A DNA stretch of 64,000 nt from Verrucomicrobiota bacterium (GCA_049513975.1 JBEKVM010000029.1:12783-76782), one strand, 5' to 3'. Shown: positions 28,297-43,506, counted from the stretch's first letter. The notes: generated from the sequence alone by a model not told the origin. A program made the numbers and translations.

Positions 28297-28373
28297 CCGG
28301 AGCGTAGCTCAGCCTGGTAGAGCACTTGGTTTGGGACCAAGACGTCGCAGGTTCAAATCCTGTCGCTCCGACC
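28297..28373 (+). tRNA. tRNA-Pro(TGG), canonical, CCA encoded
   Basis: CGGAGCG-TA-GCTC-AGCCTGGTA-GAGC-A-CTTGG-TTTGGGA-CCAAG-ACGTC-GCAGG-TTCAAAT-CCTGT-CGCTCCG-A-CCA. D-loop GG and T-loop TTCAAAT are present. Confidence 0.95.
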
Positions 28374-29861: not shown

Positions 29862-29877
29862 TTTTATCCTTTCATAC

Positions 29878-30393: not shown

Positions 30394-30580
30394 ATTGTTG
30401 GTGATCTTAACACCCTTATCAACCTTGTCAACCCCCTATTTTCAACAATTTTAAACACCGAGACCATGCCGCCACCCCCACCTCTGATAAAGGCATTTTC
30501 CCCGCGGCTCGTTCCCGTGTCGTCATCCGGCTTGCTAAAGGCAAGAAGGCCAAGCCGGATGCCAACACGCGAACGCTCCG

Positions 30581-30773
30581 CCCCGACAAGTGCCTGGTGG
30601 TGAAGTCGCTGGATTCCAGCTTGCGCCCTGTTTCCCCTTCGCAACATGGAATCCACCGCCATCACCACCAGGGAGTTGAAGGCAGCGCGGGCAGGCCGCT
30701 TTTGCGGGTCTCAATGATGTTTTCCGCTGTCGCGGAGGGGGAGAAATCAGACTGTGCCGTCACTCCATCTCCG
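30581..30773. repeat. R-module copy 2
   Basis: See 22394..22600. Confidence 0.7.
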
Positions 30774-30922
30774 AGGCCGCGAGGGACGATAACGCACGGA
30801 TGACGCCTAACACGGAAAGCTGAACCACCGCCGACTCGCGACGTGAGCCGCGTTAGCGAAACGGCAAGCGCCACCGGCGGTTCGCTCCGGCGACTTCGTT
30901 AGCCCACGGTGTCTTCACATTT

Positions 30923-31165
30923 CTAATGTCTCTTCCGCTCCCGGTCATAGTGCAGCTTCGTCGCAAAAGCCGCGACCACCAGAATCGGAACAGTGGCGAG
31001 AAGCCAAGGCAGTTCACGAGCGCCGAAGAGGGCCAGTGCGGCGAAGACGCCGATGACAAAATAGACACTCTCCCGACGATAACAGCACTGGCGATAGCTG
31101 CGACCGGAAGAACAAGCACAAGGCTCAATGAACTTCTTCGCCAGCCATGCCTTCGGACTTTTCAT
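30923..31165 (-). CDS. Small membrane protein with SEC-C-type Cys motif
   Basis: CACSSGRSYRQCC followed by two hydrophobic helices. Confidence 0.45.
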   Translation of the reverse strand: MKSPKAWLAKKFIEPCACSSGRSYRQCCYRRESVYFVIGVFAALALFGARELPWLLATVPILVVAAFATKLHYDRERKRH

Positions 31166-31287
31166 TGCAGTGTGCTTGGTGGCCTAAAGAAAAAAGCTGA
31201 ACCACCGCCGACCCGTGACGTGAACCGCGACAGCAGCACGAAAAGCGCCAACGGCGGTTGGCTCCGGCGACTTGTTTGGCGATGGGG

Positions 31288-31563
31288 TCATGACCTGAGT
31301 TCCGTGATGGCATAATAACCATACCTACCCAGTAAAATAATGGGGAAAACGCATAGGAGGCCTGCAACAACTCGCTGCCACATCACACCGTGGCGTAGCA
31401 CCGGAGCAACAAATAGCAATGCGAGACCGGCAAGTCCAAGATTCTCAAAATACCAAGAATCCGGATTTCTGTAGTCCTTAATGATGTAGCTAATGCGGCT
31501 CCAAAGAAACCACTGAACCGCGATGGCCCCAACGAACGCGAAAAGTGGATAGTTCTTTCTCAT
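31288..31563 (-). CDS. Small polytopic membrane protein
   Basis: 91 aa with three hydrophobic segments, AT-richer sequence. Confidence 0.45.
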   Translation of the reverse strand: MRKNYPLFAFVGAIAVQWFLWSRISYIIKDYRNPDSWYFENLGLAGLALLFVAPVLRHGVMWQRVVAGLLCVFPIILLGRYGYYAITELRS

Positions 31564-31566
31564 CCC

Positions 31567-31722
31567 AGAAGGATGTCGCCGCCGGCACCCAAAATCAAGC
31601 CTTTAATGCCGTTAATGCAGTTGTTCGTTTCAAATCAGCAGAGGGAACAACCGCTTTGCACCGGCCTGCCGAAGCCGGGGCACCGAACCGAGCAACGCCG
31701 GAATCCGCTCCATCCAAAATTC
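31567..31722. repeat. S-module copy 2 (Rep 3' end plus conserved leader)
   Basis: See 24001..24147. Confidence 0.7.
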
Positions 31723-32937
31723 AACGCCAGCAAATAGTTTGACAGTGAAATCCCGCGAGAACAACTGCCCCTTCCGCATCTTCGCCCGTTTCTCCTTCGG
31801 ACAGGTCGCCATGCGGTAACGGCGCATCACCCGGCGCAGTTTCAACGCCTGCCCGTTCGTCAACTCCAGTACATCCCGCCGACCGAGAGGCAGATTCTTG
31901 CGGCCAACAATGCCCCAAAACCGACCCGGCTTCGCGGACCAAATGCACTCGCCAATCTTCGCAACATACTTCTTCGCCGCGTACGCGAAGGCCCCACGCT
32001 TCGAGCCAAGCGTCTGAACCGACGTGCCCGCACGATAATGCTTCACCTCGCCGCTCCCAACCACGTCAAACCAATTCCGCGCAAACCAATTCGCAATCGA
32101 ATCTCCGTTCACCACAGACGGACACTTGCCATGCGGCTCCACACGAATGGCACACCATTCCTCGCGCTCATCCACCAAGGCACTGTGACCCTCCACCCAT
32201 TCGCCCCCGGCCAAAACATCCTCATCCCACACAACCACAAGTCCAATCATTCGGCGGCGCAAACGAACTTGCTCGGTCCGCATGGTCTTCCACTCGAAAC
32301 CCCACGGCACGCCCCAGACAAACGCATGGATATGCGGCGCGATCTTCCCCTTGTTCACCCCGCTTTTGCGAGGTTGAAATTCTAGCTTCCACATCAAACA
32401 GCCGTCAGGAAACCGACGGGCGAACCGCTTTGACATCGTATCAATGTGCCGCTTCACCTGTTCGCCATCCCAGGCGTAACGGTCAAACTCATCAGGATAC
32501 GTCAGACCCGCCATGAACGGCACCGCGCCATCTTCCACCTTCGCCAAGTAATCCAACATCCGCCGCCGTGACGCCGCCGTGAACTCCTCAATTTCGCCAC
32601 GCTCACCACCGCGACGCTCAGGCCCGCGCAAATGTCCCTCAGAACGGCACCGCAATTCCATGAAGCTCGCGTTGCGATAAACTTGCAACATGCCCTTGCT
32701 CGTATTTCGCGGTGAATTATGCACCTTAGACAAGCCAGGGCGAACGCATGTGGTCGGCGGCCAGGCGGCCGGTGAACCGTCCACCTGGCCACCGACCCGC
32801 ATTGCGGCGACAACGGCGGCAGCCTGCTCGAATGTAGTGACCGGGGAGGAATCGAAGGAATCATTGCGCACAATCCACCCCCAAACGCGACGCCCCAAGG
32901 AAAGTTGGCCCTCCCGCATCGTCCGTTGACACCACAT
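31630..32937 (-). CDS. Putative HUH-type rolling-circle replication initiator
   Basis: HUH-like APHIHAFVWG and Tyr motif AFAYAAKKYVAK. The start codon is not resolved. Confidence 0.55.
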   Translation of the reverse strand: MWCQRTMREGQLSLGRRVWGWIVRNDSFDSSPVTTFEQAAAVVAAMRVGGQVDGSPAAWPPTTCVRPGLSKVHNSPRNTSKGMLQVYRNASFMELRCRSEGHLRGPERRGGERGEIEEFTAASRRRMLDYLAKVEDGAVPFMAGLTYPDEFDRYAWDGEQVKRHIDTMSKRFARRFPDGCLMWKLEFQPRKSGVNKGKIAPHIHAFVWGVPWGFEWKTMRTEQVRLRRRMIGLVVVWDEDVLAGGEWVEGHSALVDEREEWCAIRVEPHGKCPSVVNGDSIANWFARNWFDVVGSGEVKHYRAGTSVQTLGSKRGAFAYAAKKYVAKIGECIWSAKPGRFWGIVGRKNLPLGRRDVLELTNGQALKLRRVMRRYRMATCPKEKRAKMRKGQLFSRDFTVKLFAGVEFWMERIPALLGSVPRLRQAGAKRLFPLLI

Positions 32938-33193
32938 TCCGCCGCAGAACCGGCGAGCAAAATGGCTCGCTGTCCGGTTCTGCTCGTTCTATTTCGCCGC
33001 CGTGCCGCCCTGGTATCACTGGCCCCCCTTGTCTGTGGCCGTGCTGGCAATGGCGAGGATTGCCACTTTGAGCGCCGCGTTGAGCCGGGGCCATGCCTTG
33101 ACTACTTGGGACAGGTCATGTAAGGAAGTGACCGGAGTTTGTGAGTCTCCTTGTGAGTCTCGCGTTGTAACTCCTTGATTATCAGCAGGCGGA

Positions 33194-33221
33194 GGCAGGT
33201 TCAAATCCTGTCGCTCCGACC
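33194..33221 (+). repeat. attR: duplicated tRNA-Pro 3' end
   Basis: Identical 28 bp to 28346..28373. Confidence 0.9.
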
Positions 33222-33346
33222 ACTTCATGACCCAGGGCTGGGGTTGGATTACCGGGTCGCCCGATCTGCAAATTCGCTCTTGCAGTTGGGTCGCTTTGAA
33301 TTGACAGCTTGGGAGAGCGAGCTTTTTGGCCCGCCCTCCCGGTGTT

Positions 33347-33931
33347 TTATTCCTTCACGAACAGCCTCCATTCGGGAATGCGGTGGGCGTTGCGGATGAG
33401 GGCGGAGGCCGGCAGCTCCTTGGGCGCGCGCGGCACGCGGAGCAATTTCAAGCCGGCTTCGTGGGGAAGGCGGTTGCCTTTGCGGGCGTTGACGTCTTTG
33501 CCGGCCCAAACCAGATTTTCCCAGGCGTTCTTGCCGCCGCGCGAACGGGGCAGGACGTGATCGAGGCTGCCATCTTCAGGGCGCAGGACGCGGCCGGTGT
33601 ATTGGCAGCGGTTGCCGTCGCGCTCGCGGATGGCGCGGGCGCAGAGCTTCGGGCGCTTCTTGGGCACCTTGGCGTAATTGACCGCGACGATGACCGTGGG
33701 CACACGGACCGGACCGCGGACGGTCCGCACGGCGTTGTCCTGCGGACGAATGGGCAGCGTGATCCACTCGTCCCAGGTCACGGGACGGATGTGGTTTTGG
33801 CCTTCGATGTCCAGAGCGGTCGCCACGTTGGTGGCCATCATGCAGAAGGCCTCCTGCGGCGTGCGAACGTTGACGGCCTGCCAGTTGCGGTTGAGCACCA
33901 GCACGAGCGATTTGTTCAGTATGTCATTCAT
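33347..33931 (-). CDS. HNH endonuclease
   Basis: Start MNDILNKS (ATG at 33931). HNH core CQYTG....LDHVLPRSRGGKNAWENLVWAGKDVNARKGN. Same strand as, and immediately downstream of, the tRNA-like array. Confidence 0.8.
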   Translation of the reverse strand: MNDILNKSLVLVLNRNWQAVNVRTPQEAFCMMATNVATALDIEGQNHIRPVTWDEWITLPIRPQDNAVRTVRGPVRVPTVIVAVNYAKVPKKRPKLCARAIRERDGNRCQYTGRVLRPEDGSLDHVLPRSRGGKNAWENLVWAGKDVNARKGNRLPHEAGLKLLRVPRAPKELPASALIRNAHRIPEWRLFVKE

Positions 33932-33937: not shown

Positions 33938-34027
33938 AGTGATGAGTGGAGAGTGGAGAGTGATGAATGAAAAACCCGGCACTCCGCATTTCCCACTCTG
34001 CGCCCTGCACTCCCGACTCTGCATTTT
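33938..34027. repeat. Heptad-repeat hairpin a
   Basis: GAGTGGA/GAGTGAT/GAATGAA heptads face CACTCTG/CACTCCC/GACTCTG heptads. Confidence 0.7.
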
Positions 34028-34072: not shown

Positions 34073-34147
34073 TGGCTGCCCCGCCTGGTTTTGCTCCAGG
34101 TCCTCCGGTTTCAGAGACCGGCGCACTCCTGAGTATGCAACGAGGCA
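34073..34147 (-). tRNA. tRNA-like Gln(CTG), CCA encoded
   Basis: TGCCTCG-TT-GCAT-ACTCAGGA-GTGC-G-CCGGT-CTCTGAA-ACCGG-AGGA-CCTGG-AGCAAAA-CCAGG-CGGGGCA-G-CCA. U1:A72 and G73. Confidence 0.7.
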
Positions 34148-34148
34148 A

Positions 34149-34222
34149 TGGTCGCCCGGGAAGGTTCTGCCCCTTCGATTTCTGGGTGTAGGCCGGACGT
34201 GATTCTATTTCACCACCGGGCG
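34149..34222 (-). tRNA. tRNA-like Val(TAC), CCA encoded
   Basis: CGCCCGG-TG-GTGA-AATAGAA-TCAC-G-TCCGG-CCTACAC-CCAGA-AATC-GAAGG-GGCAGAA-CCTTC-CCGGGCG-A-CCA. C33. Confidence 0.65.
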
Positions 34223-34240
34223 ATTTTGAGTTAAGAATTT

Positions 34241-34304
34241 GGAATGCGGAGTGCGGAATGAAGACGCCCCACTCTGCATTCTGCATTCTTCATTCTGCAT
34301 TTCC
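34241..34304. repeat. Heptad-repeat hairpin b
   Basis: GGAATGCGGAGTGCGGAATGAAGA...CTCTGCATTCTGCATTCTTCATTCTGCATTTCC. Confidence 0.75.
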
Positions 34305-34307
34305 GAG

Positions 34308-34381
34308 TGGCTGCCGGGGCTGGAGTTGCACCAACATATGCGCCTTCAAAGGGCGCTGTCCTACGATTAGACGACCCGGCA
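34308..34381 (-). tRNA. tRNA-like Gln(TTG), CCA encoded
   Basis: TGCCGGG-TC-GTCT-AATCGTA-GGAC-A-GCGCC-CTTTGAA-GGCGC-ATAT-GTTGG-TGCAACT-CCAGC-CCCGGCA-G-CCA. U1:A72 and G73. Confidence 0.75.
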
Positions 34382-34390
34382 AATGGGAAA

Positions 34391-34469
34391 TGATGAAGGA
34401 TGGAGGATGAAGGAAGAATTGAGGGCCGCTGCGATGTTTTGACTTCATCCTTCTTCCTTCATCCTTCTT
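34391..34469. repeat. Heptad-repeat hairpin c
   Basis: GATGAAGGATGGAGGATGAAGGAAGAA...TTCATCCTTCTTCCTTCATCCTTCTT. Confidence 0.75.
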
Positions 34470-34479
34470 ACTGGAAGAG

Positions 34480-34553
34480 TGGTGGCCCGCCAGGGTAACG
34501 CTCCCTGTTCAACGGCTTAAAAGACCGTTGCATCACTTTAATGCTTGCAGGCC
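34480..34553 (-). tRNA. tRNA-like Lys(TTT), CCA encoded
   Basis: GGCCTGC-AA-GCAT-TAAAGTG-ATGC-A-ACGGT-CTTTTAA-GCCGT-TGAA-CAGGG-AGCGTTA-CCCTG-GCGGGCC-A-CCA. A8. Confidence 0.75.
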
Positions 34554-34557
34554 ATGA

Positions 34558-34651
34558 CGATTGCGGATTGGCGATTGCGGATTGCGGATTTGAAGACAAA
34601 GGTCCGGCTGTCCGGGCGCGCTCTCAATTCGCAATTCGCAATCCGCAATTG
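34558..34651. repeat. Heptad-repeat hairpin d
   Basis: GATTGCGGATTGGCGATTGCGGATTGCGGATT...AATTCGCAATTCGCAATCCGCAATT. Confidence 0.75.
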
Positions 34652-34656
34652 AAAGA

Positions 34657-34728
34657 TGGAGCCTCCAGCCGGTGCTGCCCCGGCACGAATTCTTTACAAA
34701 AGAAATCCACAGGCTGCTGCATGGAGGC
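34657..34728 (-). tRNA. tRNA-like Thr(TGT), CCA encoded, reduced D-arm
   Basis: GCCTCCA-TG-CAGCAGCCTGTGGA-TTTCT-TTTGTAA-AGAAT-TCGT-GCCGG-GGCAGCA-CCGGC-TGGAGGC-T-CCA. Confidence 0.55.
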
Positions 34729-34766
34729 GCATTGGCTCGACGGGCCGTAGCTCGAAGAGCGAAGGC

Positions 34767-34838
34767 TGGTCGCAGTCCCCAGTGCTGCCCTGGGCAGAGC
34801 GGGCGTATGAAACCTGCCTGAGCGCTGGCTCGACTGCG
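34767..34838 (-). tRNA. tRNA-like with CAT anticodon (Met/Ile2 type), weak anticodon stem
   Basis: CGCAGTC-GA-GCCAGCGCTCAGG-CAGGT-TTCATAC-GCCCG-CTCTG-CCCAG-GGCAGCA-CTGGG-GACTGCG-A-CCA. Confidence 0.45.
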
Positions 34839-34883
34839 GTGGGCGAATGGCCGTCTTGGGGAAGGGCTTCACACGACCGAAAT

Positions 34884-34993
34884 TGGCGTCCCTGACCGGC
34901 TTTGCTCCCGCCTACGTTCAGATGCTACGGCGGGCAAGCCGGTGATCTCCTGCATGAGAGGCAGGCGTGTTGGCTGGGCTACACTACAGGGAT
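34884..34993 (-). tRNA. tRNA-like Glu(CTC) with about 39-nt hairpin insertion in the T-loop
   Basis: ATCCCTG-TA-GTGT-AGCCCAGCCA-ACAC-G-CCTGC-CTCTCAT-GCAGG-AGATC-ACCGG-[39 nt, CCCGCC..GGCGGG hairpin]-CCGGT-CAGGGAC-G-CCA. Confidence 0.4.
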
Positions 34994-34998
34994 GGAAT

Positions 34999-35090
34999 TG
35001 GTGCGCGCGTCCGGTAACGCTCCGGAACCCGGCACTGATCTAGTGCGATGCGGGGTATAAAGCCGCCGGCTCTCTTTGAGCTACGCGCGC
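34999..35090 (-). tRNA. Class II (long variable arm) tRNA-like, anticodon ambiguous (TAT best fit, TTA alternative)
   Basis: GCGCGCG-TA-GCTC-AAAGA-GAGC-CG-GCGGC-TTTATAC-CCCGC-ATC-GCACT-AGATC-AGTGC-CGGGT-TCCGG-AGCGTTA-CCGGA-CGCGCGC-A-CCA. Confidence 0.5.
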
Positions 35091-35095
35091 GCAAA

Positions 35096-35183
35096 TGGCG
35101 GAATGCCGTGGAGTTGCGCCACATGCCCGAAGGCACGCACTCGTTAGCACCGAGGCCCGGCTCGCTCGTCCGGTTGACATTCC
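35096..35183 (-). tRNA. tRNA-like Ser(GCT), class II, CCA encoded
   Basis: GGAATGT-CAA-CCGG-ACGAGCGAG-CCGG-GC-CTCG-GTGCTAA-CGAG-TGC-GTGCC-TTCG-GGCA-TGTGG-CGCAACT-CCACG-GCATTCC-G-CCA. Confidence 0.65.
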
Positions 35184-35186
35184 AAA

Positions 35187-35261
35187 TGGTGCCCGTGGCA
35201 GGACTTGCGCCTGCACTGTCGAAGGTTTGAGCTTCGCGCCTCTGCCTTGGGCTACACGGGC
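35187..35261 (-). tRNA. tRNA-like Leu(CAA) with short (class I) variable loop
   Basis: GCCCGTG-TA-GCCC-AAGGCAG-AGGC-G-CGAAG-CTCAAAC-CTTCG-ACAGT-GCAGG-CGCAAGT-CCTGC-CACGGGC-A-CCA. Confidence 0.75.
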
Positions 35262-35264
35262 TGT

Positions 35265-35339
35265 TGGTGCCCACGGCCGGATTTGCACCGACACTGGGCG
35301 CGTTTTAAGTGCGCTGTCTCTGCGTTGGACTACATGGGC
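35265..35339 (-). tRNA. tRNA-like Leu(TAA) with short variable loop
   Basis: GCCCATG-TA-GTCC-AACGCAG-AGAC-A-GCGCA-CTTAAAA-CGCGC-CCAGT-GTCGG-TGCAAAT-CCGGC-CGTGGGC-A-CCA. Confidence 0.7.
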
Positions 35340-35343
35340 AAGT

Positions 35344-35419
35344 TGGTACCGCGTGAAGGAATTGCACCCTCAACCTTCCCGTTCTGAGCGGGACGCCTCT
35401 GCTGTTGGGCTAACGCGGC
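35344..35419 (-). tRNA. tRNA-like Leu(CAG) with short variable loop
   Basis: GCCGCGT-TA-GCCC-AACAGCAG-AGGC-G-TCCCG-CTCAGAA-CGGGA-AGGTT-GAGGG-TGCAATT-CCTTC-ACGCGGT-A-CCA. Confidence 0.75.
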
Positions 35420-35425
35420 CTGGAT

Positions 35426-35501
35426 TGGCACTCCCGGAAGGACTCTCACCCTCATCTTCGACGTTCGAAGCGTCGCGCTCTGGTGATTGAGCTACGGGAG
35501 C
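35426..35501 (-). tRNA. tRNA-like Arg(TCG), CCA encoded
   Basis: GCTCCCG-TA-GCTC-AATCACCA-GAGC-G-CGACG-CTTCGAA-CGTCG-AAGAT-GAGGG-TGAGAGT-CCTTC-CGGGAGT-G-CCA. Confidence 0.75.
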
Positions 35502-35503
35502 GG

Positions 35504-35610
35504 GAAGAAGTGCAAAATGCGGAATGCAGAATGCAGAATGAAATGCCGCACACCATGCCTTGCCTTCGGGATGGTCTCACTCTGCATTCTTCACTCTCAA
35601 TTCTCCATTC
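35504..35610. repeat. Heptad-repeat hairpin e
   Basis: GAAGTGCAAAATGCGGAATGCAGAATGCAGAATGAAATG...CACTCTGCATTCTTCACTCTCAATTCTCCATTC. Confidence 0.75.
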
Positions 35611-35614
35611 GAAA

Positions 35615-35689
35615 TGGTGGGTTGCCGCGGAATTGCACCGCGTTCTCGCCGGTTAAGAGCCGGGACTTCACTGTAAAAGTTTGCAACCC
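35615..35689 (-). tRNA. tRNA-like Lys(CTT), CCA encoded
   Basis: GGGTTGC-AA-ACTT-TTACAGTG-AAGT-CCCGG-CTCTTAA-CCGGC-GAGAA-CGCGG-TGCAATT-CCGCG-GCAACCC-A-CCA. A8. Confidence 0.7.
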
Positions 35690-35691
35690 GG

Positions 35692-35768
35692 ACGCGACGC
35701 GATGGCGGAGTTGAACCGCCGCAGCCAGGTCTGTGAGGCCCTTGCCGGCACCGGTGTTCGCGTCGCGT
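35692..35768 (-). other. Hairpin element: 11-bp closing stem enclosing a T-arm with a canonical-type loop, not a cloverleaf
   Basis: Plus-strand arms ACGCGACGCGA (35692..35702) and TCGCGTCGCGT (35758..35768) pair. The minus sense contains GGCGG-TTCAACT-CCGCC. No anticodon arm could be found. Confidence 0.4.
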
Positions 35769-35819
35769 AAGTAATAATCGTCGTTGTTGATTGTCTCCAA
35801 AGGACGTAACAATCCAGGC

Positions 35820-36581
35820 ATGACGATTCCGGCTGAATTGCTGCAACGCCTGGCCGCCGCCAAAAGCGTGACGGTGCTGACGGGCGCCGGCGTGTCGGCG
35901 GAAAGCGGGGTCCCCACATTTCGCGATGCCCAGACCGGGCTGTGGGCGAAATTCAGTCCCGAAGAACTGGCCACGCCGCGCGCCTTCCGGCGAAATCCCC
36001 GCCTGGTTTGGGAATGGTATGAATGGCGGCGTGAGCTTGTCGCCGCCGCCAAGCCAAACCCGGCGCACCTCGCCCTGGCAGAAATGGAGAAGGTCTTTCC
36101 GCGGTTCCATCTCATCACGCAAAACGTGGACGGTCTGCATCAACGCGCTGGAAGCCGGCGGGTCATCGAACTGCACGGCAATATCATGCGCACGAAATGT
36201 TTTGACGAGGGCACGCTGGTTTCGAGTTGGAAAGACACCGGCGATGTCCCGCCGAAATGCCCGGCCTGTGGCGGCTGGTTGCGCCCCGACGTGGTTTGGT
36301 TTGAAGAGGCAATGCCGGAAGCGGAGATGGCACAGGCCGCGACGGCGAGCACGCATTGCGACGTCTTTTTTTCCATCGGCACGTCCACTGTTGTTTATCC
36401 CGCGGCCGCCCTGCCAGCGGAAGCGTTGCGCAGCGGGGCGACCGTGGCGGAGATCAATCCGCAACCCACACCATTCACGCCGCAGGCGCATTTTGCTCTG
36501 GCTGGGGCGGCCGGGGTTGTGTTGCCCGAATTGATGGAGGGCCTCAACGCCGTGCGTGGCGGGCTGCGCGCGTCGTCGTAG
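35820..36581 (+). CDS. cobB: Sir2-family NAD-dependent protein deacylase (CobB-like)
   Basis: GAGVSAESGVPTFRD, QNVDGLHQRAG, Zn ribbon C..C...CPACGG, FFSIGTS. Start MTIPAELL at 35820. Opposite strand to the array. Confidence 0.85.
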   Translation: MTIPAELLQRLAAAKSVTVLTGAGVSAESGVPTFRDAQTGLWAKFSPEELATPRAFRRNPRLVWEWYEWRRELVAAAKPNPAHLALAEMEKVFPRFHLITQNVDGLHQRAGSRRVIELHGNIMRTKCFDEGTLVSSWKDTGDVPPKCPACGGWLRPDVVWFEEAMPEAEMAQAATASTHCDVFFSIGTSTVVYPAAALPAEALRSGATVAEINPQPTPFTPQAHFALAGAAGVVLPELMEGLNAVRGGLRASS

Positions 36582-36636
36582 GCCCACCTCCGCTCTACGA
36601 GCTACGGCGGCCAACCTTCGCCGCGGCGAAGGTTGG
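36582..36636 (-). repeat. Partial E-type repeat with a perfect 12-bp hairpin that pairs the CCA of the Cys tRNA-like
   Basis: CCAACCTTCGCC-GC-GGCGAAGGTTGG (36611..36636) followed by CCGCCGTAGCTCGTAGAGCGG, homologous to the E repeats. Abuts the sirtuin stop codon. Confidence 0.55.
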
Positions 36637-36708
36637 AATCCCGTGCTGGAATTGCACCAGCCTTTGCGGTTCTGCAGACCGCCGCCTGAGCTGCTCGGCC
36701 AACGGGAC
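36634..36708 (-). tRNA. tRNA-like Cys(GCA), CCA encoded
   Basis: GTCCCGT-TG-GCCG-AGCAGCTCA-GGC-G-GCGGT-CTGCAGA-ACCGC-AAAG-GCTGG-TGCAATT-CCAGC-ACGGGAT-T-CCA. U73. Confidence 0.75.
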
Positions 36709-36720
36709 GCACTTCAAAAT

Positions 36721-36795
36721 TGGGGTGACCAACCGGAGTTGCACCGGCACAAACGCCGTCACGGGGCGTGATGCTGCTGTTACATCATGATCACC
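36721..36795 (-). tRNA. tRNA-like His(GTG) with encoded G-1 and C73
   Basis: (G-1)GTGATCA-TG-ATGT-AACAGCA-GCAT-C-ACGCC-CCGTGAC-GGCGT-TTGT-GCCGG-TGCAACT-CCGGT-TGGTCAC-C-CCA. C33. Confidence 0.75.
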
Positions 36796-36798
36796 ATG

Positions 36799-36892
36799 GC
36801 AAAAGTGCAAAGTTGTGAACGCAAAGTGCAGAGTGGAAGGCACCATGTTCGCGTCCTTCCATTCTTCACTCTGCATTCTGCCTTCTTCACTC
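36799..36892. repeat. Heptad-repeat hairpin f
   Basis: AAAGTGCAAAGTTGTGAACGCAAAGTGCAGAGTGGAAGG...CCTTCCATTCTTCACTCTGCATTCTGCCTTCTTCAC. Confidence 0.7.
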
Positions 36893-36895
36893 AAA

Positions 36896-36971
36896 TGGAG
36901 CCCCTGGCCGGACTCGCACCGGCGGATACGAGTTTACGAAACTCGCCCTGTTGCTGCTGAGGCACGGGGGC
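36896..36971 (-). tRNA. tRNA-like Thr(CGT), CCA encoded
   Basis: GCCCCCG-TG-CCTC-AGCAGCAAC-AGGG-CGAGT-TTCGTAA-ACTCG-TATCC-GCCGG-TGCGAGT-CCGGC-CAGGGGC-T-CCA. U73, as in the other Thr unit. Confidence 0.65.
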
Positions 36972-36973
36972 GG

Positions 36974-37099
36974 GAAAGAAAGGATGAAGGATGAAGGCTG
37001 AAGGCTAAAGTAAAGGCAAAAGCGAGCGATCAACAAGAGATTCTAATGCTCGCTGAGCAATCTTTTCCTTCATCCTTCATACTTCTTCCTTCTTACTTC
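36974..37099. repeat. Heptad-repeat hairpin g
   Basis: AAGGATGAAGGATGAAGGCTGAAGGCTAAAG...CCTTCATCCTTCATACTTCTTCCTTCTTACTTC. Confidence 0.7.
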
Positions 37100-37104
37100 A
37101 AAAC

Positions 37105-37150
37105 TGGCGCTCTCACATGGATTTGCACCATGAGGTTCTGGCTTCGTTAC
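37105..37150 (-). pseudogene. 3' fragment of a tRNA-like unit (CCA, acceptor strand, T-arm CATGG-TGCAAAT-CCATG), truncated at the adjacent CDS
   Basis: Plus strand TGG-C-GCTCTCA-CATGG-ATTTGCA-CCATG. No matching 5' acceptor strand. The region beyond 37147 is the 3' end of the ORF. Confidence 0.45.
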
Positions 37151-37719
37151 GGCCAAACACTCGCCCGGTTTGTCGCCAGGTTGTCGAGAATCCAGGTTTT
37201 GTTGCGAAGCGGAAAAAGAGTTAATCTCGACATGTTGTCAACATTACTGGCGGCCTCCCGGACCTCGGCCATATTCGGCAGGCGGACGTAATTGCTGCCT
37301 TCGATCATCACCTGGGGTGCTCGGTGCTCCATGTAGTCCCGTACGTAGCTGCCCAGGGAGCCGCTGTTCGGCGGCCAGTCCGAGGACCGTGGAAGATTCG
37401 TGGAACCACTCCGAAGATCAACGACAAATACCAACATGGACGTGTCGTCGTCGTCCACACACAAGAAGCGTTTGCCGTCCGCAAAAGCATAGAGACAAAG
37501 AGGACAATCAAAAAAGTCGCCCCATATACTGAACAACTTGGTTTCGCCGGCATAGACGGGATATTCCTTGTCCCCCCACCACAGAGGTGCTGGGAGCTTG
37601 ACAGCCGCCACGACTTTCCCGTTTGCGCGAAGCTTCACACTGCGCGTTCCCAATAGCTGCCATAGCGCCAAGCCAATGGCGGCGACTATGAGAATAAGAA
37701 TGACGATTCGTCGTTTCAC
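37147..37719 (-). CDS. Hypothetical membrane-anchored protein
   Basis: MKRRIVILILIVAAIGLALW anchor. Lower GC. Sits inside the array on the array strand. Confidence 0.5.
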   Translation of the reverse strand: MKRRIVILILIVAAIGLALWQLLGTRSVKLRANGKVVAAVKLPAPLWWGDKEYPVYAGETKLFSIWGDFFDCPLCLYAFADGKRFLCVDDDDTSMLVFVVDLRSGSTNLPRSSDWPPNSGSLGSYVRDYMEHRAPQVMIEGSNYVRLPNMAEVREAASNVDNMSRLTLFPLRNKTWILDNLATNRASVWP

Positions 37720-37810
37720 GATGTGCAGCGCCTGGAATCTATAAGCCTGGAACGCCCCTCGTAGCCATCATAAATTCGGGCTGACTCAGTTTCTTGCATT
37801 TAGAGCAAAT

Positions 37811-37888
37811 TGGCATCCGTGATCGGACTCGCACCGATTAGGCCCGGCTTGAAAGACCGGCTGCTCGATCTGCTTTGCATTCACGGAC
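37811..37888 (-). tRNA. tRNA-like Glu(TTC), CCA encoded, enlarged D-loop
   Basis: GTCCGTG-AA-TGC-AAAGCAGATCGA-GCA-G-CCGGT-CTTTCAA-GCCGG-GCCTA-ATCGG-TGCGAGT-CCGAT-CACGGAT-G-CCA. Confidence 0.65.
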
Positions 37889-37909
37889 TAATTGCGCAGG
37901 ACTGAGAAT

Positions 37910-37984
37910 TGGCCCCCGAGGTTGGTATCGCGCCAACGTCTCCTCCTCTTCAGGGAGGCGCTAATCTTCCTCAGCTACCCGGGG
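37910..37984 (-). tRNA. tRNA-like Phe(GAA), CCA encoded
   Basis: CCCCGGG-TA-GCTG-AGGAAGATT-AGC-G-CCTCC-CTGAAGA-GGAGG-AGAC-GTTGG-CGCGATA-CCAAC-CTCGGGG-G-CCA. Confidence 0.75.
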
Positions 37985-37990
37985 AATGAA

Positions 37991-38062
37991 TGGCCCGGTA
38001 GAGGGAGACTCTGTCGAGCTGTGACTAAATCGAGTCAGGGTTCGACGGAGTCTCCCTACCGG
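37991..38062 (-). ncRNA. CCA-terminated rod-like hairpin (acceptor-like stem stacked on a 7-bp stem, no cloverleaf)
   Basis: CCGGTAG-G-GAGACTC-C-GTCGA-ACCC-TGACT-CGATTT-AGTCA-CAGC-TCGAC-A-GAGTCTC-CCT-CTACCGG-G-CCA. Confidence 0.4.
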
Positions 38063-38070
38063 GAAAAGTA

Positions 38071-38141
38071 TCGTCCCGGCAGGTAATGCTCCTGCGTCTT
38101 CCGGTTATCAGCCGGGCGCTCTGCTCTTGAGCTACAGGACG
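38071..38141 (-). tRNA. tRNA-like Ile(GAT), the only member without an encoded CCA
   Basis: CGTCCTG-TA-GCTC-AAGAGCA-GAGC-G-CCCGG-CTGATAA-CCGGA-AGAC-GCAGG-AGCATTA-CCTGC-CGGGACG-A, followed by TAC. Confidence 0.7.
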
Positions 38142-38287
38142 GTGGTTAGTTGCGGTTTCAGGCCGAAGCGTTTGGCGGGGCGGAACACGATGTTCAGCTT
38201 GCCGATTGGCCGGATGCGCATGGCCCGATTTAGTTGGCAGCGCTTGCGAAAGAGCAACTGGCTTTGACAGCGGACAATGGGTTTCAT
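38132..38287 (-). CDS. Possible 51-aa very basic small ORF (below the ORF-track cutoff)
   Basis: ATG at 38287 with AAAGG 8 nt upstream. MKPIVRCQSQLLFRKRCQLNRAMRIRPIGKLNIVFRPAKRFGLKPQLTTVL*. The stop codon lies inside the 5' end of the Ile tRNA-like. Confidence 0.25.
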   Translation of the reverse strand: MKPIVRCQSQLLFRKRCQLNRAMRIRPIGKLNIVFRPAKRFGLKPQLTTVL

Positions 38288-38316
38288 GGGATTACCTTTC
38301 GTTAAGGGTTTGGAAT

Positions 38317-38418
38317 TGGCTTGCCGGGCCGAAGCCGCTTCCGGGAGGAGACATGGCCCGTCTTGGCTTCGCTTCGACGCGGCAGCCTGCGCCGCCCGCT
38401 GATGGAGGCGGCGAAAGC
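38317..38418 (-). repeat. E repeat copy 1 (CCA-terminated structured repeat plus hairpin)
   Basis: Family shared with 38919.., 39193.. and 39468... The plus strand starts AATTGGC(C/T)TGCC and ends GGCGAA(A/G)GCTGG. Confidence 0.6.
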
Positions 38419-38509
38419 TGGCGGAAGGCGTCGGTAACGCTCCGACCTCGGGTTTGAGCCGATCCTGTTTTCGGGACAGGCGCAGCCAGCTTATATCTGC
38501 CTGCCTTCC
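38419..38509 (-). tRNA. tRNA-like Ser(CGA), class II, CCA encoded
   Basis: GGAAGGC-AG-GCAG-ATATAAGCTGG-CTGC-G-CCTGT-CCCGAAA-ACAGG-A-TCGG-CTCAAAC-CCGA-G-GTCGG-AGCGTTA-CCGAC-GCCTTCC-G-CCA. C33. Confidence 0.7.
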
Positions 38510-38513
38510 TTAA

Positions 38514-38588
38514 GTGGAGAGTTGGGAGTAAAGAGTGTAGAATCGAAAATGCCTGTATTCTGCACTCTGCACTTTGCACTCTGCATTC
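38514..38588. repeat. Heptad-repeat hairpin h
   Basis: GTGGAGAGTTGGGAGTAAAGAGTGTAGAATCG...TATTCTGCACTCTGCACTTTGCACTCTGCATTC. Confidence 0.7.
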
Positions 38589-38592
38589 AAAA

Positions 38593-38666
38593 TGGCTGCC
38601 AGACTTGGACTCGCACCAAGACAAGCGGCTTAACAGGCCGCCGTGCTACTTTGACACCACCTGGCA
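38593..38666 (-). tRNA. tRNA-like Asn(GTT), CCA encoded
   Basis: TGCCAGG-TG-GTGT-CAAAGTAG-CAC-G-GCGGC-CTGTTAA-GCCGC-TTGT-CTTGG-TGCGAGT-CCAAG-TCTGGCA-G-CCA. Confidence 0.75.
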
Positions 38667-38668
38667 AT

Positions 38669-38745
38669 TGGCGCTGCCGGCAGGATTTGCACCCGCATAA
38701 GTTCGTTTAGAAGACGAACGCCTCATCTCGTTCGGCCACGGCAGC
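38669..38745 (-). tRNA. tRNA-like Arg(TCT), CCA encoded
   Basis: GCTGCCG-TG-GCCG-AACGAGATGA-GGC-G-TTCGT-CTTCTAA-ACGAA-CTTAT-GCGGG-TGCAAAT-CCTGC-CGGCAGC-G-CCA. Confidence 0.75.
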
Positions 38746-38754
38746 TTTTGGAAA

Positions 38755-38830
38755 TGGTCGGAATGGCAGGGTTTTCACCTGCGGCCTCCCGGTCCCAAGC
38801 CGGGTGCTCTAAAGACTGAGCTACATTCCG
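38755..38830 (-). tRNA. tRNA-like Pro(TGG), CCA encoded
   Basis: CGGAATG-TA-GCTC-AGTCTTTA-GAGC-A-CCCGG-CTTGGGA-CCGGG-AGGCC-GCAGG-TGAAAAC-CCTGC-CATTCCG-A-CCA. Confidence 0.75.
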
Positions 38831-38837
38831 TGAAGAA

Positions 38838-38913
38838 TGGCGGACCCGAAGGGAGTTGCACCCTCAACCCTCCCGCAGACAACGGGGCGCTCTGCTGATT
38901 GAGCTACGAGTCC
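38838..38913 (-). tRNA. tRNA-like Asp(GTC), CCA encoded
   Basis: GGACTCG-TA-GCTC-AATCAGCA-GAGC-G-CCCCG-TTGTCTG-CGGGA-GGGTT-GAGGG-TGCAACT-CCCTT-CGGGTCC-G-CCA. Confidence 0.7.
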
Positions 38914-38918
38914 GAAAT

Positions 38919-39019
38919 TGGCCTGCCCGCCGAAGCTGCGCAGGACGAGGCGTAAAGCCCGCCTTCGCTAAAGCTACGGCGCGGCAGCCTTCGCCCGCCG
39001 TTGCACAGCGGGCGAAGGC
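38919..39019 (-). repeat. E repeat copy 2
   Basis: Minus sense: GCCTTCGCCCGC-TGTGCAACG-GCGGGCGAAGGC hairpin, then CTGCCGCGCCGTAGCTTTAGCGAAGGCGGGCTTTACGCCTCGTCCTGCGCAGCTTCGGCGGGCAG-G-CCA. Confidence 0.65.
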
Positions 39020-39107
39020 TGGTGGGAAGTGCTGGTAACGCTCCAGTCGTCGCTTCCGACATGTTTTGAGACGTCCGGGTTACGGCCGGATTGCCGGATC
39101 ACTTCCC
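39020..39107 (-). tRNA. tRNA-like Tyr(GTA)?, 88 nt, D-arm reduced, long extra arm
   Basis: GGGAAGT-GA-TCCGGCAA-TCCGG-CCGTAAC-CCGGA-CGTCTCAAAACATGTCGGAAGCGACG-ACTGG-AGCGTTA-CCAGC-ACTTCCC-A-CCA. C33. Alternative folds are possible. Confidence 0.45.
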
Positions 39108-39113
39108 TGAAAT

Positions 39114-39186
39114 TGGTAGCGGGGGTGGGAGTTGCGCCCACGGAGGCAGAGCTTATGAGGCTCGCCTGAATCTCATTCTCCCCGCA
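39114..39186 (-). tRNA. tRNA-like Met-type (CAT), 1:72 mismatch, tiny D-loop
   Basis: TGCGGGG-A-GAAT-GAG-ATTC-AGGC-GAGC-CTCATAA-GCTC-TGCCTCC-GTGGG-CGCAACT-CCCAC-CCCCGCT-A-CCA. Confidence 0.55.
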
Positions 39187-39192
39187 GTGAAA

Positions 39193-39293
39193 TGGCCTGC
39201 CAGCCGTAGCTGTGCAGGACGAGGCGTAACGTCGGCCTTCGCTAAAGCTACGGCGCGGCAGCCTTCGCCCGCCGTTGCACAGCGGGCGAAGGC
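39193..39293 (-). repeat. E repeat copy 3
   Basis: Near-identical to copy 2 over the hairpin and the CGGCGCGGCAGCCTTCGCCCGCCGTTGCACAGCGGGCGAAGGCTGG block. Confidence 0.65.
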
Positions 39294-39368
39294 TGGTGGA
39301 GTCGGTGGGTAACGCTCCCACATCGGCTTGCTTGCAGGGCAAGTGCATTGCTTGTCTGCCACGACCCC
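39294..39368 (-). tRNA. tRNA-like Ala(TGC) with G3:U70
   Basis: GGGGTCG-TG-GCA-GACAAGCAA-TGC-A-CTTGC-CCTGCAA-GCAAG-CCGAT-GTGGG-AGCGTTA-CCCAC-CGACTCC-A-CCA. Position 3 G pairs with position 70 T. C33. Confidence 0.75.
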
Positions 39369-39383
39369 ATAAAGTCAAAAGAA

Positions 39384-39457
39384 TGGCAAGCCGCCCTGGT
39401 GCTGCCCCAGGCAAGCTGAGTTTTGGAGACTCTGCTGCACAGGCTGGTGCGCGACTT
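39384..39457 (-). tRNA. tRNA-like Trp(CCA), CCA encoded
   Basis: AAGTCGC-GCAC-CAGCCT-GTGC-AGCA-GAGT-CTCCAAA-ACTC-AGCTTG-CCTGG-GGCAGCA-CCAGG-GCGGCTT-G-CCA. Confidence 0.6.
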
Positions 39458-39467
39458 GTTTTGGAAT

Positions 39468-39567
39468 TGGCCTGCCAGCCGCAGCCGCGCAGGAGGAAAC
39501 GAAAAGCCCGCCTTCGCTGAAGCTGCGGCGGGCAGCCTTCACCCGTTGACATGCAGCGGGGGAAGGC
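39468..39567 (-). repeat. E repeat copy 4 (most diverged)
   Basis: The plus strand starts AATTGGCCTGCCAGCCGCAGCCGCGCAGG and ends GCAGCGGGGGAAGGCTGG. Confidence 0.55.
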
Positions 39568-39641
39568 TGGTGCGGTTGCCGGGAGTTGCGCCCGGACTTC
39601 CTCCGTGGCGGGGAGGCATTCTGCTGTTAAATCACAACCGC
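39568..39641 (-). tRNA. tRNA-like Gly(GCC), CCA encoded
   Basis: GCGGTTG-TG-ATTT-AACAGCAG-AAT-G-CCTCC-CCGCCAC-GGAGG-AAGT-CCGGG-CGCAACT-CCCGG-CAACCGC-A-CCA. C33. Confidence 0.75.
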
Positions 39642-39651
39642 GAAATTAGAA

Positions 39652-39679
39652 GGGCCGGGAGCGTTGCTGCTCCCGGCCC
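39652..39679. other. 11-bp perfect GC-rich hairpin 10 nt upstream of the first array unit
   Basis: GGGCCGGGAGC-gttgct-GCTCCCGGCCC. Confidence 0.6.
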
Positions 39680-39989
39680 ATGCCATTTCAACAAAGAACA
39701 AACACCTCTTGGCGATCTAAGCGATCCCAACCCGCGGTTTCACGGCGGCTGTTTCGGTGTTTAGGGGCACACCTCCTGCAAAGCCCTTAATATGTAAATC
39801 TAAAATTCGTCCTGTTCGTCCTGGGGACGTTGTCTTCCGGTCGTGGGCAGACCCCGCCGGTGAGGCTTCTCTGCTCGTCCCCGCCAAATTCAATTTGTCG
39901 CCAGAAGACATCACCTGGATGTCGCGTTATTCTTGTTCACAGATTGTCCATTTATCGTTGTTAATCGTTCACAGTCATGCTTTTCAGGG

Positions 39990-40026
39990 AAAATAAAAAA
40001 CCCTGCTTGCATGTCGGCAAGCAGGG
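39990..40026 (-). terminator. Rho-independent terminator (minus strand)
   Basis: CCCTGCTTGC-atgtcg-GCAAGCAGGG, with the A-run AAAATAAAAAA on the plus side, which is a U-tract on the minus strand. Confidence 0.6.
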
Positions 40027-40444
40027 TTGAGGAAGTTCTATTTCGTTCGTTACCTGCTTGCCATGAGTCTATCCAACTTGACCTGTTGTTCCGGGGCTGC
40101 GGTGGATAGACCAAGGCTAAACACACTACCCGGGTTATACCGGCTATGACGTGTCCCAATGGTCATTGGGGCCGCCGTCATCGGCCAACTCGCGGCTGAT
40201 ATGTTTAAGCAAGTTTTCATTGAACTTATAACACAGGTATCACGGAGTGTTCATTGCGTCAACTACTATTTAAAAATATTTTGAGATTTTTTTATTGCGC
40301 CCGGATTCATATATTCGGATAGGTTGATGTGAAATTCCTGACGCCCCGCGCAGTTTTTGCGCTGACGCCGTGAGATTGACGCGGGCCTGCCGCTTCTGTT
40401 TCTCCGGGATGATGAAGGAGCCGGCGGCAGGGTTTGGCCTCGCG

Positions 40445-43468: not shown

Positions 43469-43506
43469 GGCAAATGCAAAATTATAAATTATGAATTATA
43501 AATGAA

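Follow-up and report, generated by a model that had tools for sequence, protein, structure and literature searches.

In the 64,000-nt stretch of DNA from a Verrucomicrobiota bacterium analysed here (JBEKVM010000029.1; hereafter the window, in whose positions all coordinates are given), positions 34073-39641 are occupied by a dense array of tRNA-like genes, all of them on the minus strand. We consider it probable (at roughly 70%) that this array is a co-oriented operon of about 30 supernumerary tRNAs, normally silent and serving as a backup set for translational stress or tRNA damage. The region is a member of the L-array class, in which by definition 20 or more tRNA genes are packed at 2 or more per kb (Tran et al. 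2016, PMC4758250), because its HNH endonuclease is homologous to the cyanobacterial one and because its short Leu tRNAs are common to the Anabaena array. The array itself is therefore of a known kind, and what appears to be new are an altered tRNA elbow with A18 and G55, which is shared with arrays of uncultured phages, a link between such arrays and the genes for RtcB and Ro60, and an undescribed leader RNA.

Detection, conservation and constraint of the array

The original prediction, made from the sequence alone, had described a dense minus-strand array decoding all 20 amino acids and had proposed that it be checked with ARAGORN, with the Rfam family RF00005 and for cloverleaf folding under covariance models. 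ARAGORN at default settings called 16 minus-strand tRNAs in 34073-39641 and one plus-strand tRNA-Pro at 28298-28374, and a relaxed threshold added Lys-CTT, His and Gly (spurious plus-strand and intron calls made in intron mode or with -ps80 were disregarded). RF00005 gave 14 matches above the gathering score in a scan of the whole window and, with permissive filters, 17 above it within the array region plus an 18th at 28.2 bits. Default ARAGORN and Rfam combined yield about 20 array tRNAs, and standard tRNA finders miss about one third of the genes of the array.

A lineage-specific covariance model (R1), built from 138 array tRNAs of other genomes and containing no window sequence, was run across all 64 kb with filters off. 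It returned 24 minus-strand array matches at E ≤ 1.2e-5 and, with Ser-CGA (1.6e-4), 25 at E ≤ 2e-4; weaker matches were Glu-CTC (0.01), a truncated unit (0.011), the second of two units with a CAT anticodon (0.027) and Trp (0.035), and the weakest were Ser-GCT (E = 0.6) and a Tyr-like unit (E = 1.3), whose long arms are penalised by the model. All weak units have orthologues that are 83-100% identical in 12-42 related loci, with compensatory changes, and the tRNA-Pro at 28298-28374 is the sole other strong match to R1 in the 64 kb. Every unit listed in the original prediction was also recovered by a scan for a 7-bp acceptor stem before CCA. ARAGORN, Rfam and R1 therefore agree that the array is real, and its anticodons do cover all 20 amino acids. 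In total, 30 tRNA-like genes are accompanied by a 3' fragment at 37105-37191 and by a CCA-less tRNA-like unit at 35690-35766; with 30 genes in 5.57 kb, the density is 5.4 per kb. The GC content of the window is about 60%, with no compositional break between the array and its flanks.

That the set is accessory, as predicted, is suggested by a canonical host tRNA-Pro(TGG) 6 kb away, which duplicates the anticodon of the array Pro(TGG), and by the canonical form of the non-array tRNAs in relatives. Spacers of 1-6 nt were likewise confirmed (e.g., 34149/34147 and 35265/35261). The claim that CCA is encoded in all units but the one at 38071-38141 was correct as regards this tRNA-Ile(GAT), and has to be amended by a second CCA-less unit, that at 35690-35766.

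Directly downstream of the array and on the same strand lies an HNH endonuclease gene (33347-33931, minus strand; Pfam HNH_4 and HNH_5), whose product has 5718 homologues at E ≤ 1e-10, the best 120 being 78-94% identical and one of these 120 being named as from a Verrucomicrobiae bacterium. Contigs of three of the homologues carry syntenic arrays upstream of HNH, RtcB following in two genomes, and one such neighbourhood additionally holds Ro60/TROVE, a PIN toxin and SIR2. A scan based on an HNH alignment and covering one genome per species yielded at least 576 relatives, of which the best 80 are almost all from Verrucomicrobiota metagenome-assembled genomes (MAGs; Limisphaerales, Pedosphaera, "subdivision 3"); at 60% HNH identity the relatives reach Chthoniobacterales, Luteolibacter and Akkermansiaceae, and the few labelled as other phyla (75-84% identity) are probably binning errors.

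In 65 of 84 related loci ARAGORN found tRNAs upstream of HNH on the same strand, and most of the remaining loci have no sequence upstream of HNH. There are at least 10 tRNAs in 28 loci and at least 5 in 47, so that the search for syntenic arrays suggested in the original prediction was successful. Their order is largely conserved: Gly, (Trp), Ala, (CAT), (Tyr-like), Asp, Pro, Arg-TCT, Asn, (Ser), Ile-GAT, followed by Phe, (Glu-TTC), (Arg-GCG), Thr, His, Cys, then Arg-TCG, Leu-CAG, Leu-TAA, Leu-CAA, (Ser), and at the end a class II UAU unit, Arg-CCT, Gly, Val, Glu-CTC, Thr-GGT, Leu-GAG, Lys, Gln-TTG, (Val-TAC), Gln-CTG and HNH. Variable cargo genes are inserted near tRNA-Cys, and the flanking genes vary from genome to genome. 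Against plasmids and phages, blastn with the array gave only similarity at the level of single tRNAs or SIR2, with no syntenic array. RtcB is present within 10 kb in at least 45 of the 84 related loci and Ro60/TROVE in 19 of them, mostly inside the arrays, a linkage that connects tRNA arrays with RNA repair by RtcB and Ro60. A PIN (VapC-like) toxin gene with a small partner open reading frame (ORF), Ro60/TROVE and RtcB were observed in or beside arrays at L010 6013-6737, L010 828-2591 and L008 10671-12083.

Constraint on the units is evident from the 138 array tRNAs of other genomes, in which 96.7% of cells fall in standard pairs (versus 57% in shuffles and 36-44% in slid controls), with double changes in 20 of 21 stem pairs and compensatory changes in all four stems. 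Identity elements are kept: G3:U70 in all 16 Ala orthologues, U73 in 38 of 39 Cys and A73 in 94 of 95 Leu tRNAs, G1:C72, C2:G71 and G3:C70 in Gly, G1:C72 and C2:G71 in Thr, C1:G72 and A73 in Pro, U1:A72 and G73 in both Gln and Asn, G73 in Asp, and G-1:C73 in the His tRNA of the window and 11 of 26 relatives. Anticodon loops are canonical 7-nt loops, U33 being present in 89% and a purine at position 37 (R37) in 97% of array tRNAs. Since the stems and the tertiary pair 19:56 (see below) covary and U33, purine 37 and the identity elements are retained, the array units look functional: they are folded, probably chargeable tRNAs and not pseudogenes.

The A18/G55 elbow

Few nucleotides in biology are as invariant as G18 and uridine 55, the latter as pseudouridine (Psi55). 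When position 55 is assigned by reading the T arm from its 3' end, every one of the 29 window units whose T stem has the regular 5 bp carries G55 in place of the canonical U55, their T loops being TGCRANT, CGCAANT, AGCGTTA, GGCAGCA, TGAAAAC or TGAGAGT. G18G19 is missing from most array tRNAs of the window, which therefore depart from the canonical elbow set of G18, G19, U54, U55, C56 and A58. It is because of these diverged T loops that array units obtain low Rfam scores.

The same feature is found throughout the 65 related Verrucomicrobiota loci, in which 583 of 603 array tRNAs (97%) have G55, as against none of the 10 tRNAs outside the arrays of these loci, all of which have the canonical U55. 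The D-loop GG is retained in 45 of the 583 G55 tRNAs (that is, it is absent from 92% of their D loops) as compared with 23 of 30 U55 tRNAs, and in the G55 tRNAs it is replaced by A-G-Y-A. The tertiary pair 19:56 covaries, with C56 accompanied by AG, G56 by AC and A56 by AT or TT, and this also holds within the orthologous groups Leu-CAG, Arg-TCT, Pro and Arg-TCG; a D-loop A followed by the Watson-Crick partner of position 56 is found in 91% of cases, versus 67% in shuffled D loops. In the G55 array tRNAs positions 54:58 are UA 462 times and AU 72 times, and positions 55-58 conform to GNRA in 504 of 583. These patterns suggest that the elbow has been rebuilt, with A18 and G55 replacing G18 and Psi55, usually within N54-G55-N56-R57-A58.

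T-loop motifs outside tRNA, in rRNA and RNase P, tolerate G at their second position; these motifs are not tRNAs, and the analogy suggests that a G at the U55 position can form the turn and that G55 is structurally feasible. We know of no solved tRNA structure with A18 and G55, and full-text literature searches, which covered few subscription journals, returned no description of G55 or of this elbow in arrays or phage tRNAs. The G55/A18 elbow provides a molecular mark by which the array tRNAs differ from the housekeeping set.

Outside bacterial genomes, a pattern of two adjacent G55 T arms was found in at least 120 IMG/VR contigs, and many of these carry arrays that are wholly or mostly G55 and without GG (18 of 18 tRNAs in L115, 18 of 18 in L157, 15 of 15 in L150 and 13 of 13 in L202). 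L150 is a genuine phage, with a GpA terminase, a lambda-type portal and an S49 protease, as is L193, which has a T4-type portal and a TROVE gene. Viral HNH relatives (35-45% identity) adjoin canonical arrays.

If true, a complete and chargeable G55/A18 set would show that the tRNA elbow can be rebuilt, and backup tRNAs distinguishable from the housekeeping pool would suggest why phages and bacteria keep accessory arrays; the long-debated function of L-arrays and phage tRNA clusters becomes testable with defined G55 and U55 variants.

Leader RNA, proposed function and competing explanations

L-arrays occur in several phyla, including Verrucomicrobia and Planctomycetes, and are thought to be spread horizontally and to add redundant isodecoders (PMC8421152; PMC4758250). 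The closest precedent in function is the Anabaena trn operon: of its 26 array tRNAs, 23 carry amino acids in vivo (Santamaria-Gomez et al. 2021, PMC8421152), and it is induced by translation inhibitors and favours survival; the HNH homing endonuclease gene all8564 is conserved beside such arrays and co-induced (PMC8421152), and TrcR co-represses the operon, all8564 and rtcB (PMC10272220). This array lies in the last 6 kb of plasmid delta of strain PCC 7120, the first 50 kb of which are without tRNAs. Like the array described here, it has more than 20 co-oriented tRNAs at more than 2 per kb, 1-10-nt spacers and embedded cargo ORFs, is supernumerary to the housekeeping tRNAs, as the present one probably is too, and contains Leu tRNAs of class I length (75-78 nt), which are found in a Microcystis phage array as well and are therefore a trait of the class and not an oddity. 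Both are neighboured by an HNH gene of the same subfamily (the all8564 family; 42% identity between the two proteins over 99 amino acids in the catalytic half, E = 5e-22, BLASTP), and both are associated with RtcB, which is co-regulated in Anabaena and adjacent in relatives here.

The differences are equally clear. The Anabaena array has a canonical elbow, with U55 and GG in 23 of 24 tRNAs and G55 in 1 of 24, whereas here G55 is universal and G18G19 lost. HNH is downstream here and upstream in cyanobacteria, the gene order differs from that of Anabaena, regulation would involve a structured leader with terminators instead of the TrcR repressor, and the array is widely conserved, over a large part of the phylum, apparently in contrast to the sporadic distribution of L-arrays. 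Phage tRNA clusters, such as those of the Mycobacterium phage Alice (Bxz1-like), the Mesorhizobium phage Cp1R7A-A1 and the Microcystis phage Mwe-JY26, are also dense, with HNH beside them, short Leu tRNAs and CCA in some; unlike the present array, they have no G55 (0 of 22 in Alice, 0 of 26 in Cp1R7A-A1 and 0 of 7 in the Microcystis phage), although the uncultured contigs L150 and L193 carry all-G55 arrays, and they are not chromosomal and free of surrounding phage genes as it is.

The leader extends over about 550 nt upstream of tRNA-Gly (40196-39642, minus strand) and is conserved, with no conserved reading frame. Block A (39989-40196), which is non-coding, ends in a terminator-like hairpin (40028-39999) and a T run recognised in a terminator scan; nhmmer located it in 34 loci, always on the same strand upstream of the array, and these were aligned and a consensus fold made. 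Block B1 (39803-39969) is also non-coding, without a conserved frame, and was found in 28 loci by nhmmer. Block B2 (39642-39802) is made up of a hairpin, H1, with GGAGGUG as an invariant motif of its loop, of a three-way junction and, before the T-rich run TTCTAATTTC, of a terminator-like hairpin (39679-39652). It stops 0-1 nt before tRNA-Gly, the first tRNA, and was recovered in 39 loci by nhmmer and in 37 by a covariance model (R2) at E ≤ 1.5e-26. Pairing is observed in 95.4% of cells of block B2 and double changes in 19 of 34 pairs (versus 10.5 ± 1.6 in shuffles and 3-8 in slid controls), counts which come from a model-based alignment fitted to the structure and are thus biased towards it. 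Column-wise counts on a MAFFT alignment were dropped, two helices being misaligned between clades.

The leader had no match to an Rfam 15 family up to E = 10, including the known riboswitch, T-box and leader families, and constitutes a new conserved candidate for a regulatory RNA, possibly an attenuator or riboswitch. R2 also detected the core of block B2 before tRNA-Gly in the viral loci L125 and L155. In the latter, an IMG/VR contig of 41% GC, the core (9358-9534) is without the terminator hairpin and lies directly before tRNA-Gly in a mostly canonical (U55) phage array, and the motif is therefore not confined to G55 arrays or to Verrucomicrobiota. Two kinds of coding candidate were rejected: an ORF of 150 amino acids upstream of the array in L008, which is antisense to tRNA-Gly and not conserved, and candidate leader peptides, which are broken by 1-nt indels.

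As a backup set, the operon would normally be off, the two terminator-like leader hairpins suggesting conditional read-through. Translational stress or tRNA damage would switch it on, as in Anabaena, and it would then supply replacement tRNAs together with the RtcB ligase and Ro60 to which it is linked in relatives, with RNase P and 3' exonucleases expected to cut the CCA-encoded tRNAs out of their densely packed precursor. The G55/A18 elbow may allow them to escape readers of the canonical T loop such as TruB and the elbow- or T-loop-directed tRNases of toxins, phages and defence systems, and would keep the 19:56 face that is used by the ribosome and RNase P. CdiA toxins that cleave the T loop are known.

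A number of observations weigh against this reading. The near universality of U55 in functional tRNAs means that G55 could impair function, and some units are deviant, including Leu tRNAs without a long arm, the Tyr-like unit without a D arm, the class II UAU unit, units with C33, Glu-CTC with an insertion, and one truncated copy. A promoter scan gave no more sites than shuffles, and inspection of the leader by eye for sigma-54 and sigma-70 promoters was unconvincing; the terminator-like hairpins might not be attenuators at all but mark the 3' ends of separate small RNAs. The genes for RtcB and Ro60/TROVE are absent from this 64-kb window, and HNH keeps 60-95% identity throughout the phylum, which would be unusual in a homing endonuclease of the selfish kind.

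More tentatively, and at less than even odds, we propose that the G55/A18 arrays represent a distinct, undescribed class of tRNAs with an orthogonal elbow, present in Verrucomicrobiota and uncultured phages, which would have the class I Leu, class II UAU and crossing-helix Tyr-like tRNAs as recoded or unusual members. Its leader would be riboswitch-like or ribosome-sensing (GGAGGUG is the full complement of the 16S 3' end), and together with RtcB and Ro60 it would provide a backup translation blind to nucleases and modification enzymes.

Among the alternatives, it is unlikely, though deserving of consideration, that the RNAs act outside ribosomal translation, as substrates, decoys or sensors in RNA repair and defence (Ro60/Y-RNA-like, RtcB substrates or tRNase decoys) or as aminoacyl donors. 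The linkage of Ro60, RtcB, the PIN toxin and HNH in relatives would fit such a role, as would an altered elbow, which could reduce use by the ribosome or EF-Tu, and the odd units (the CCA-less one, the crossing-helix Tyr-like one, class II UAU and the CCA-ended hairpins); non-canonical roles for array tRNAs have been left open in Anabaena too (PMC8421152). There is some similarity to the rsr-yrlA-rtcBA operon and Y RNAs (Chen et al. 2014, PMC4201824; Hughes et al. 2020, PMC7790460), since relatives place Ro60/TROVE and RtcB in or beside tRNA-shaped RNAs. Unlike the array members, however, which possess complete anticodon arms, YrlA has the Psi55 T loop of canonical form. Such a module would call for a Ro60 gene within about 4 kb and a Y RNA with a Ro-binding stem, and the window contains neither a TROVE match nor a YrlA-like Rfam match. 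A nearly complete and non-redundant anticodon set, canonical 7-nt loops with U33 and R37 and the retained outer pair 19:56 fit decoding, and the Anabaena precedent favours translation.

Improbable, in our estimation, is that the array is the cargo of a mobile element, a prophage or integrative island, which entered recently at tRNA-Pro. An integrase and attachment (att) repeats do adjoin the array: the host housekeeping tRNA-Pro(TGG) (28298-28374, plus strand; canonical GGTTCAAATCC T arm) is the attachment site of an integrative element of 4.85 kb (28347-33225), at whose two ends (28347-28377 and 33195-33225) the 3' end of tRNA-Pro is present as a direct repeat with 30/31 matching positions. 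G55-signature arrays also stand beside terminase, portal and TROVE genes on phage contigs, the flanking genes vary between genomes and some MAGs hold two copies. The element, however, ends at 33225, 850 bp short of the array, which starts at 34073 outside the att repeats and is therefore not cargo of its neighbour, contrary to the connection drawn in the original prediction. Furthermore, no phage or conjugation genes flank the array, its GC content is that of its flanks, and leader, order and HNH are conserved over at least 47 related loci, mostly Verrucomicrobiota MAGs. Of the predicted horizontal acquisition, then, a recent island is not upheld, but an ancient phage or mobile origin is plausible, given the same T loops beside phage terminase and portal genes and the varying flanks.

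Finally, we strongly disfavour decaying tRNA pseudogenes or selfish tRNA-derived repeats without RNA function, a reading to which the low Rfam scores (38-64 bits), G55 in place of a near-universal base, copies that are truncated or carry insertions, and repeats scattered among the units (E elements and heptamer hairpins, see below) might lend themselves, but which is excluded by the covariation in all four stems and at 19:56, as well as being at odds with the conserved identity elements, U33 and R37 and with orthologues that are 83-100% identical although the HNH proteins differ by up to 40%.

Individual units and neighbouring genes

The operon for which we propose a backup role begins with tRNA-Gly(GCC) (39568-39641; T loop CGCAACT, CCA encoded, G1:C72, C2:G71, G3:C70), which scored 64.6 bits with R1 and 50.8 bits with Rfam. 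It is followed by tRNA-Trp(CCA) (39384-39457; T loop GGCAGCA, A1:U72, G73; R1 E = 0.035), kept in 18 loci with compensatory changes in the D and T stems, and by tRNA-Ala(TGC) (39294-39368; G3:U70, T loop AGCGTTA), found by ARAGORN and by R1 at 63.1 bits. The first CAT-anticodon tRNA (39114-39186; R1 31.7 bits, 12 loci) has a 3-nt D loop, an extended anticodon stem and a U1:U72 mismatch. The Tyr-like unit with a GTA anticodon (39020-39107; 21 loci) is of class II length and without a normal D arm, has C33 in the window copy, and forms two mutually crossing helices, both of which covary.

ARAGORN, Rfam and R1 all detect tRNA-Asp(GTC) (38838-38913; R1 67.7 bits), the array copy of tRNA-Pro(TGG) (38755-38830; T loop TGAAAAC with A56, T-rich D loop), tRNA-Arg(TCT) (38669-38745; R1 71.2 bits), tRNA-Asn(GTT) (38593-38666), tRNA-Ile(GAT) (38071-38141; without CCA in the window copy and with it in orthologues) and tRNA-Phe(GAA) (37910-37984; T loop CGCGATA). 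Between Asn and Ile lies the class II tRNA-Ser(CGA) (38419-38509; G73, R1 E = 1.6e-4, 22 loci). Downstream of Phe are tRNA-Glu(TTC) (37811-37888; R1 50.1 bits, 32 loci) and the truncated tRNA (37105-37191; R1 E = 0.011), which consists only of a T arm, a 3' acceptor strand and CCA and has no full-length orthologue among related loci.

The next units are tRNA-Thr(CGT) (36896-36971) and, with U73, tRNA-Cys(GCA) (36634-36708), both called by ARAGORN, Rfam and R1, and between them tRNA-His(GTG) (36721-36795; G-1 encoded, C73), called by Rfam, relaxed ARAGORN and R1. tRNA-Lys(CTT) (35615-35689) was obtained with relaxed ARAGORN and with R1 at 47.9 bits. The run of tRNA-Arg(TCG) (35426-35501; T loop TGAGAGT, R1 74.3 bits), tRNA-Leu(CAG) (35344-35419), tRNA-Leu(TAA) (35265-35339) and tRNA-Leu(CAA) (35187-35261), the last resembling the Leu-CAA of the Microcystis phage array, is again supported by ARAGORN, Rfam and R1; all three Leu tRNAs are of class I length, with no long variable arm, and have A73.

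They are followed by the class II tRNA-Ser(GCT) (35096-35183; G73, 42 loci), read by eye, and by the class II tRNA with a UAU anticodon (34999-35090; long variable arm, A73, 26 loci), which ARAGORN calls Ile(tat) and which scored 28.2 bits with Rfam and E = 1.2e-5 with R1. Decoding of AUA by this unit would not require lysidine, and its identity may be Leu- or Tyr-like. tRNA-Glu(CTC) (34884-34993) is probably a pseudogene, as its T loop is interrupted by an inserted hairpin of 32 nt and A1 is mismatched with C72, in contrast with intact orthologues.

The second CAT-anticodon tRNA (34767-34838; T loop GGCAGCA, R1 E = 0.027, 19 loci) is trailed by a short E-like remnant extending to about 34735, and tRNA-Thr(TGT) (34657-34728) reached 39 bits with R1 and was found in 19 loci. 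Of the last four units, tRNA-Lys(TTT) (34480-34553; T loop AGCGTTA) was detected by ARAGORN and R1, tRNA-Gln(TTG) (34308-34381; U1:A72, G73) by ARAGORN, Rfam and R1, tRNA-Val(TAC) (34149-34222; C33, 37 loci) by Rfam at 38 bits and R1 at 53.9 bits, and tRNA-Gln(CTG) (34073-34147), the last tRNA of the array, by Rfam and R1.

Some CCA-ended units of the array region are not cloverleaves, namely four E elements and a hairpin, all on the minus strand. An E element is about 100 nt long and consists of a 15-bp hairpin and a long imperfect hairpin ending in N-CCA. The four copies lie at 39468-39567 (beginning right after the CCA of tRNA-Gly and ending in G-CCA), 39193-39293, 38919-39019 and, diverged, 38317-38418. 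E elements always begin straight after a tRNA CCA and were found only in arrays, in about 13 related loci; given this limited distribution and their greater divergence, they were rejected as core components and treated as an array-specific repeat, not a conserved gene, and they may be array-specific repeats or processing aids. The hairpin (37991-38062) is long and near-perfect, ends in G-CCA, has a fold z-score of -6.4 and was found in one related locus only.

The CCA-less tRNA-like unit (35690-35766, minus strand), whose orthologues in 30 loci show compensatory changes, combines an acceptor stem of 8 bp with a second stem of 6 bp, in whose 10-nt loop TCACAG occurs, and is the only array member with a canonical T loop (TTCAACT). 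At permissive thresholds neither this unit nor the E elements matched an Rfam family, apart from a weak match of the unit to tRNA-Sec (20 bits).

A SIR2-family (CobB-like) gene (35820-36581; Pfam 1.2e-52) lies inside the array on the plus strand, that is, opposite to the tRNAs; it truncates an E-like element at about 36580-36633, adjoins tRNA-Cys at the same position in L010 and L011, and is also found in L012. On the minus strand, an ORF of 190 amino acids with no known domain (37147-37719) is a probable insertion, being absent from the 84 related loci and present on the near-identical contig L002. A conserved and very basic ORF of 51 amino acids (38132-38287, minus strand; MKPIxRYQSQLLFRKSYKP...RFGxKPQL) has an AAAGG ribosome-binding site, overlaps the 5' end of tRNA-Ile and gave tblastn matches in 16 related loci; its differences by codon position (130/114/214) show a third-position excess, and it had no Pfam match.

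As regards the HNH protein, a PDB sequence search matched only the HNH domain (IscB/Cas9-like), with no match for the N-terminal 90 amino acids, and an AlphaFold2 model from a 24-sequence alignment was unusable (mean predicted local distance difference test score of 38.8). The neighbouring integrative element carries a tyrosine integrase, an HTH_17 protein and a Rep-like ORF as well as a 99-nt direct repeat (30805-30903 and 31182-31280), and a large part of it recurs, at 91-94% identity, in L011, the closest relative.

Long hairpins of tandem 7-nt units (AATGCAG, GGATGAA, GATTGCG) fill many spacers of the array, at 33980-34025, 34243-34301, 34389-34472, 34560-34649, 35511-35607, 36817-36885, 36980-37097 and 38556-38587. 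As such hairpins also occur elsewhere in the window (43487-43672 and 56476-56507), their appearance is that of a repeat or terminator family spread across the genome, not of an array component. To the right of the array are a DUF5703/GH95-like gene and a type III-like restriction-modification pair (43892-50016, minus strand), composed of a ResIII helicase/nuclease of 1017 amino acids and an N6/N4 methylase of 1024 amino acids.

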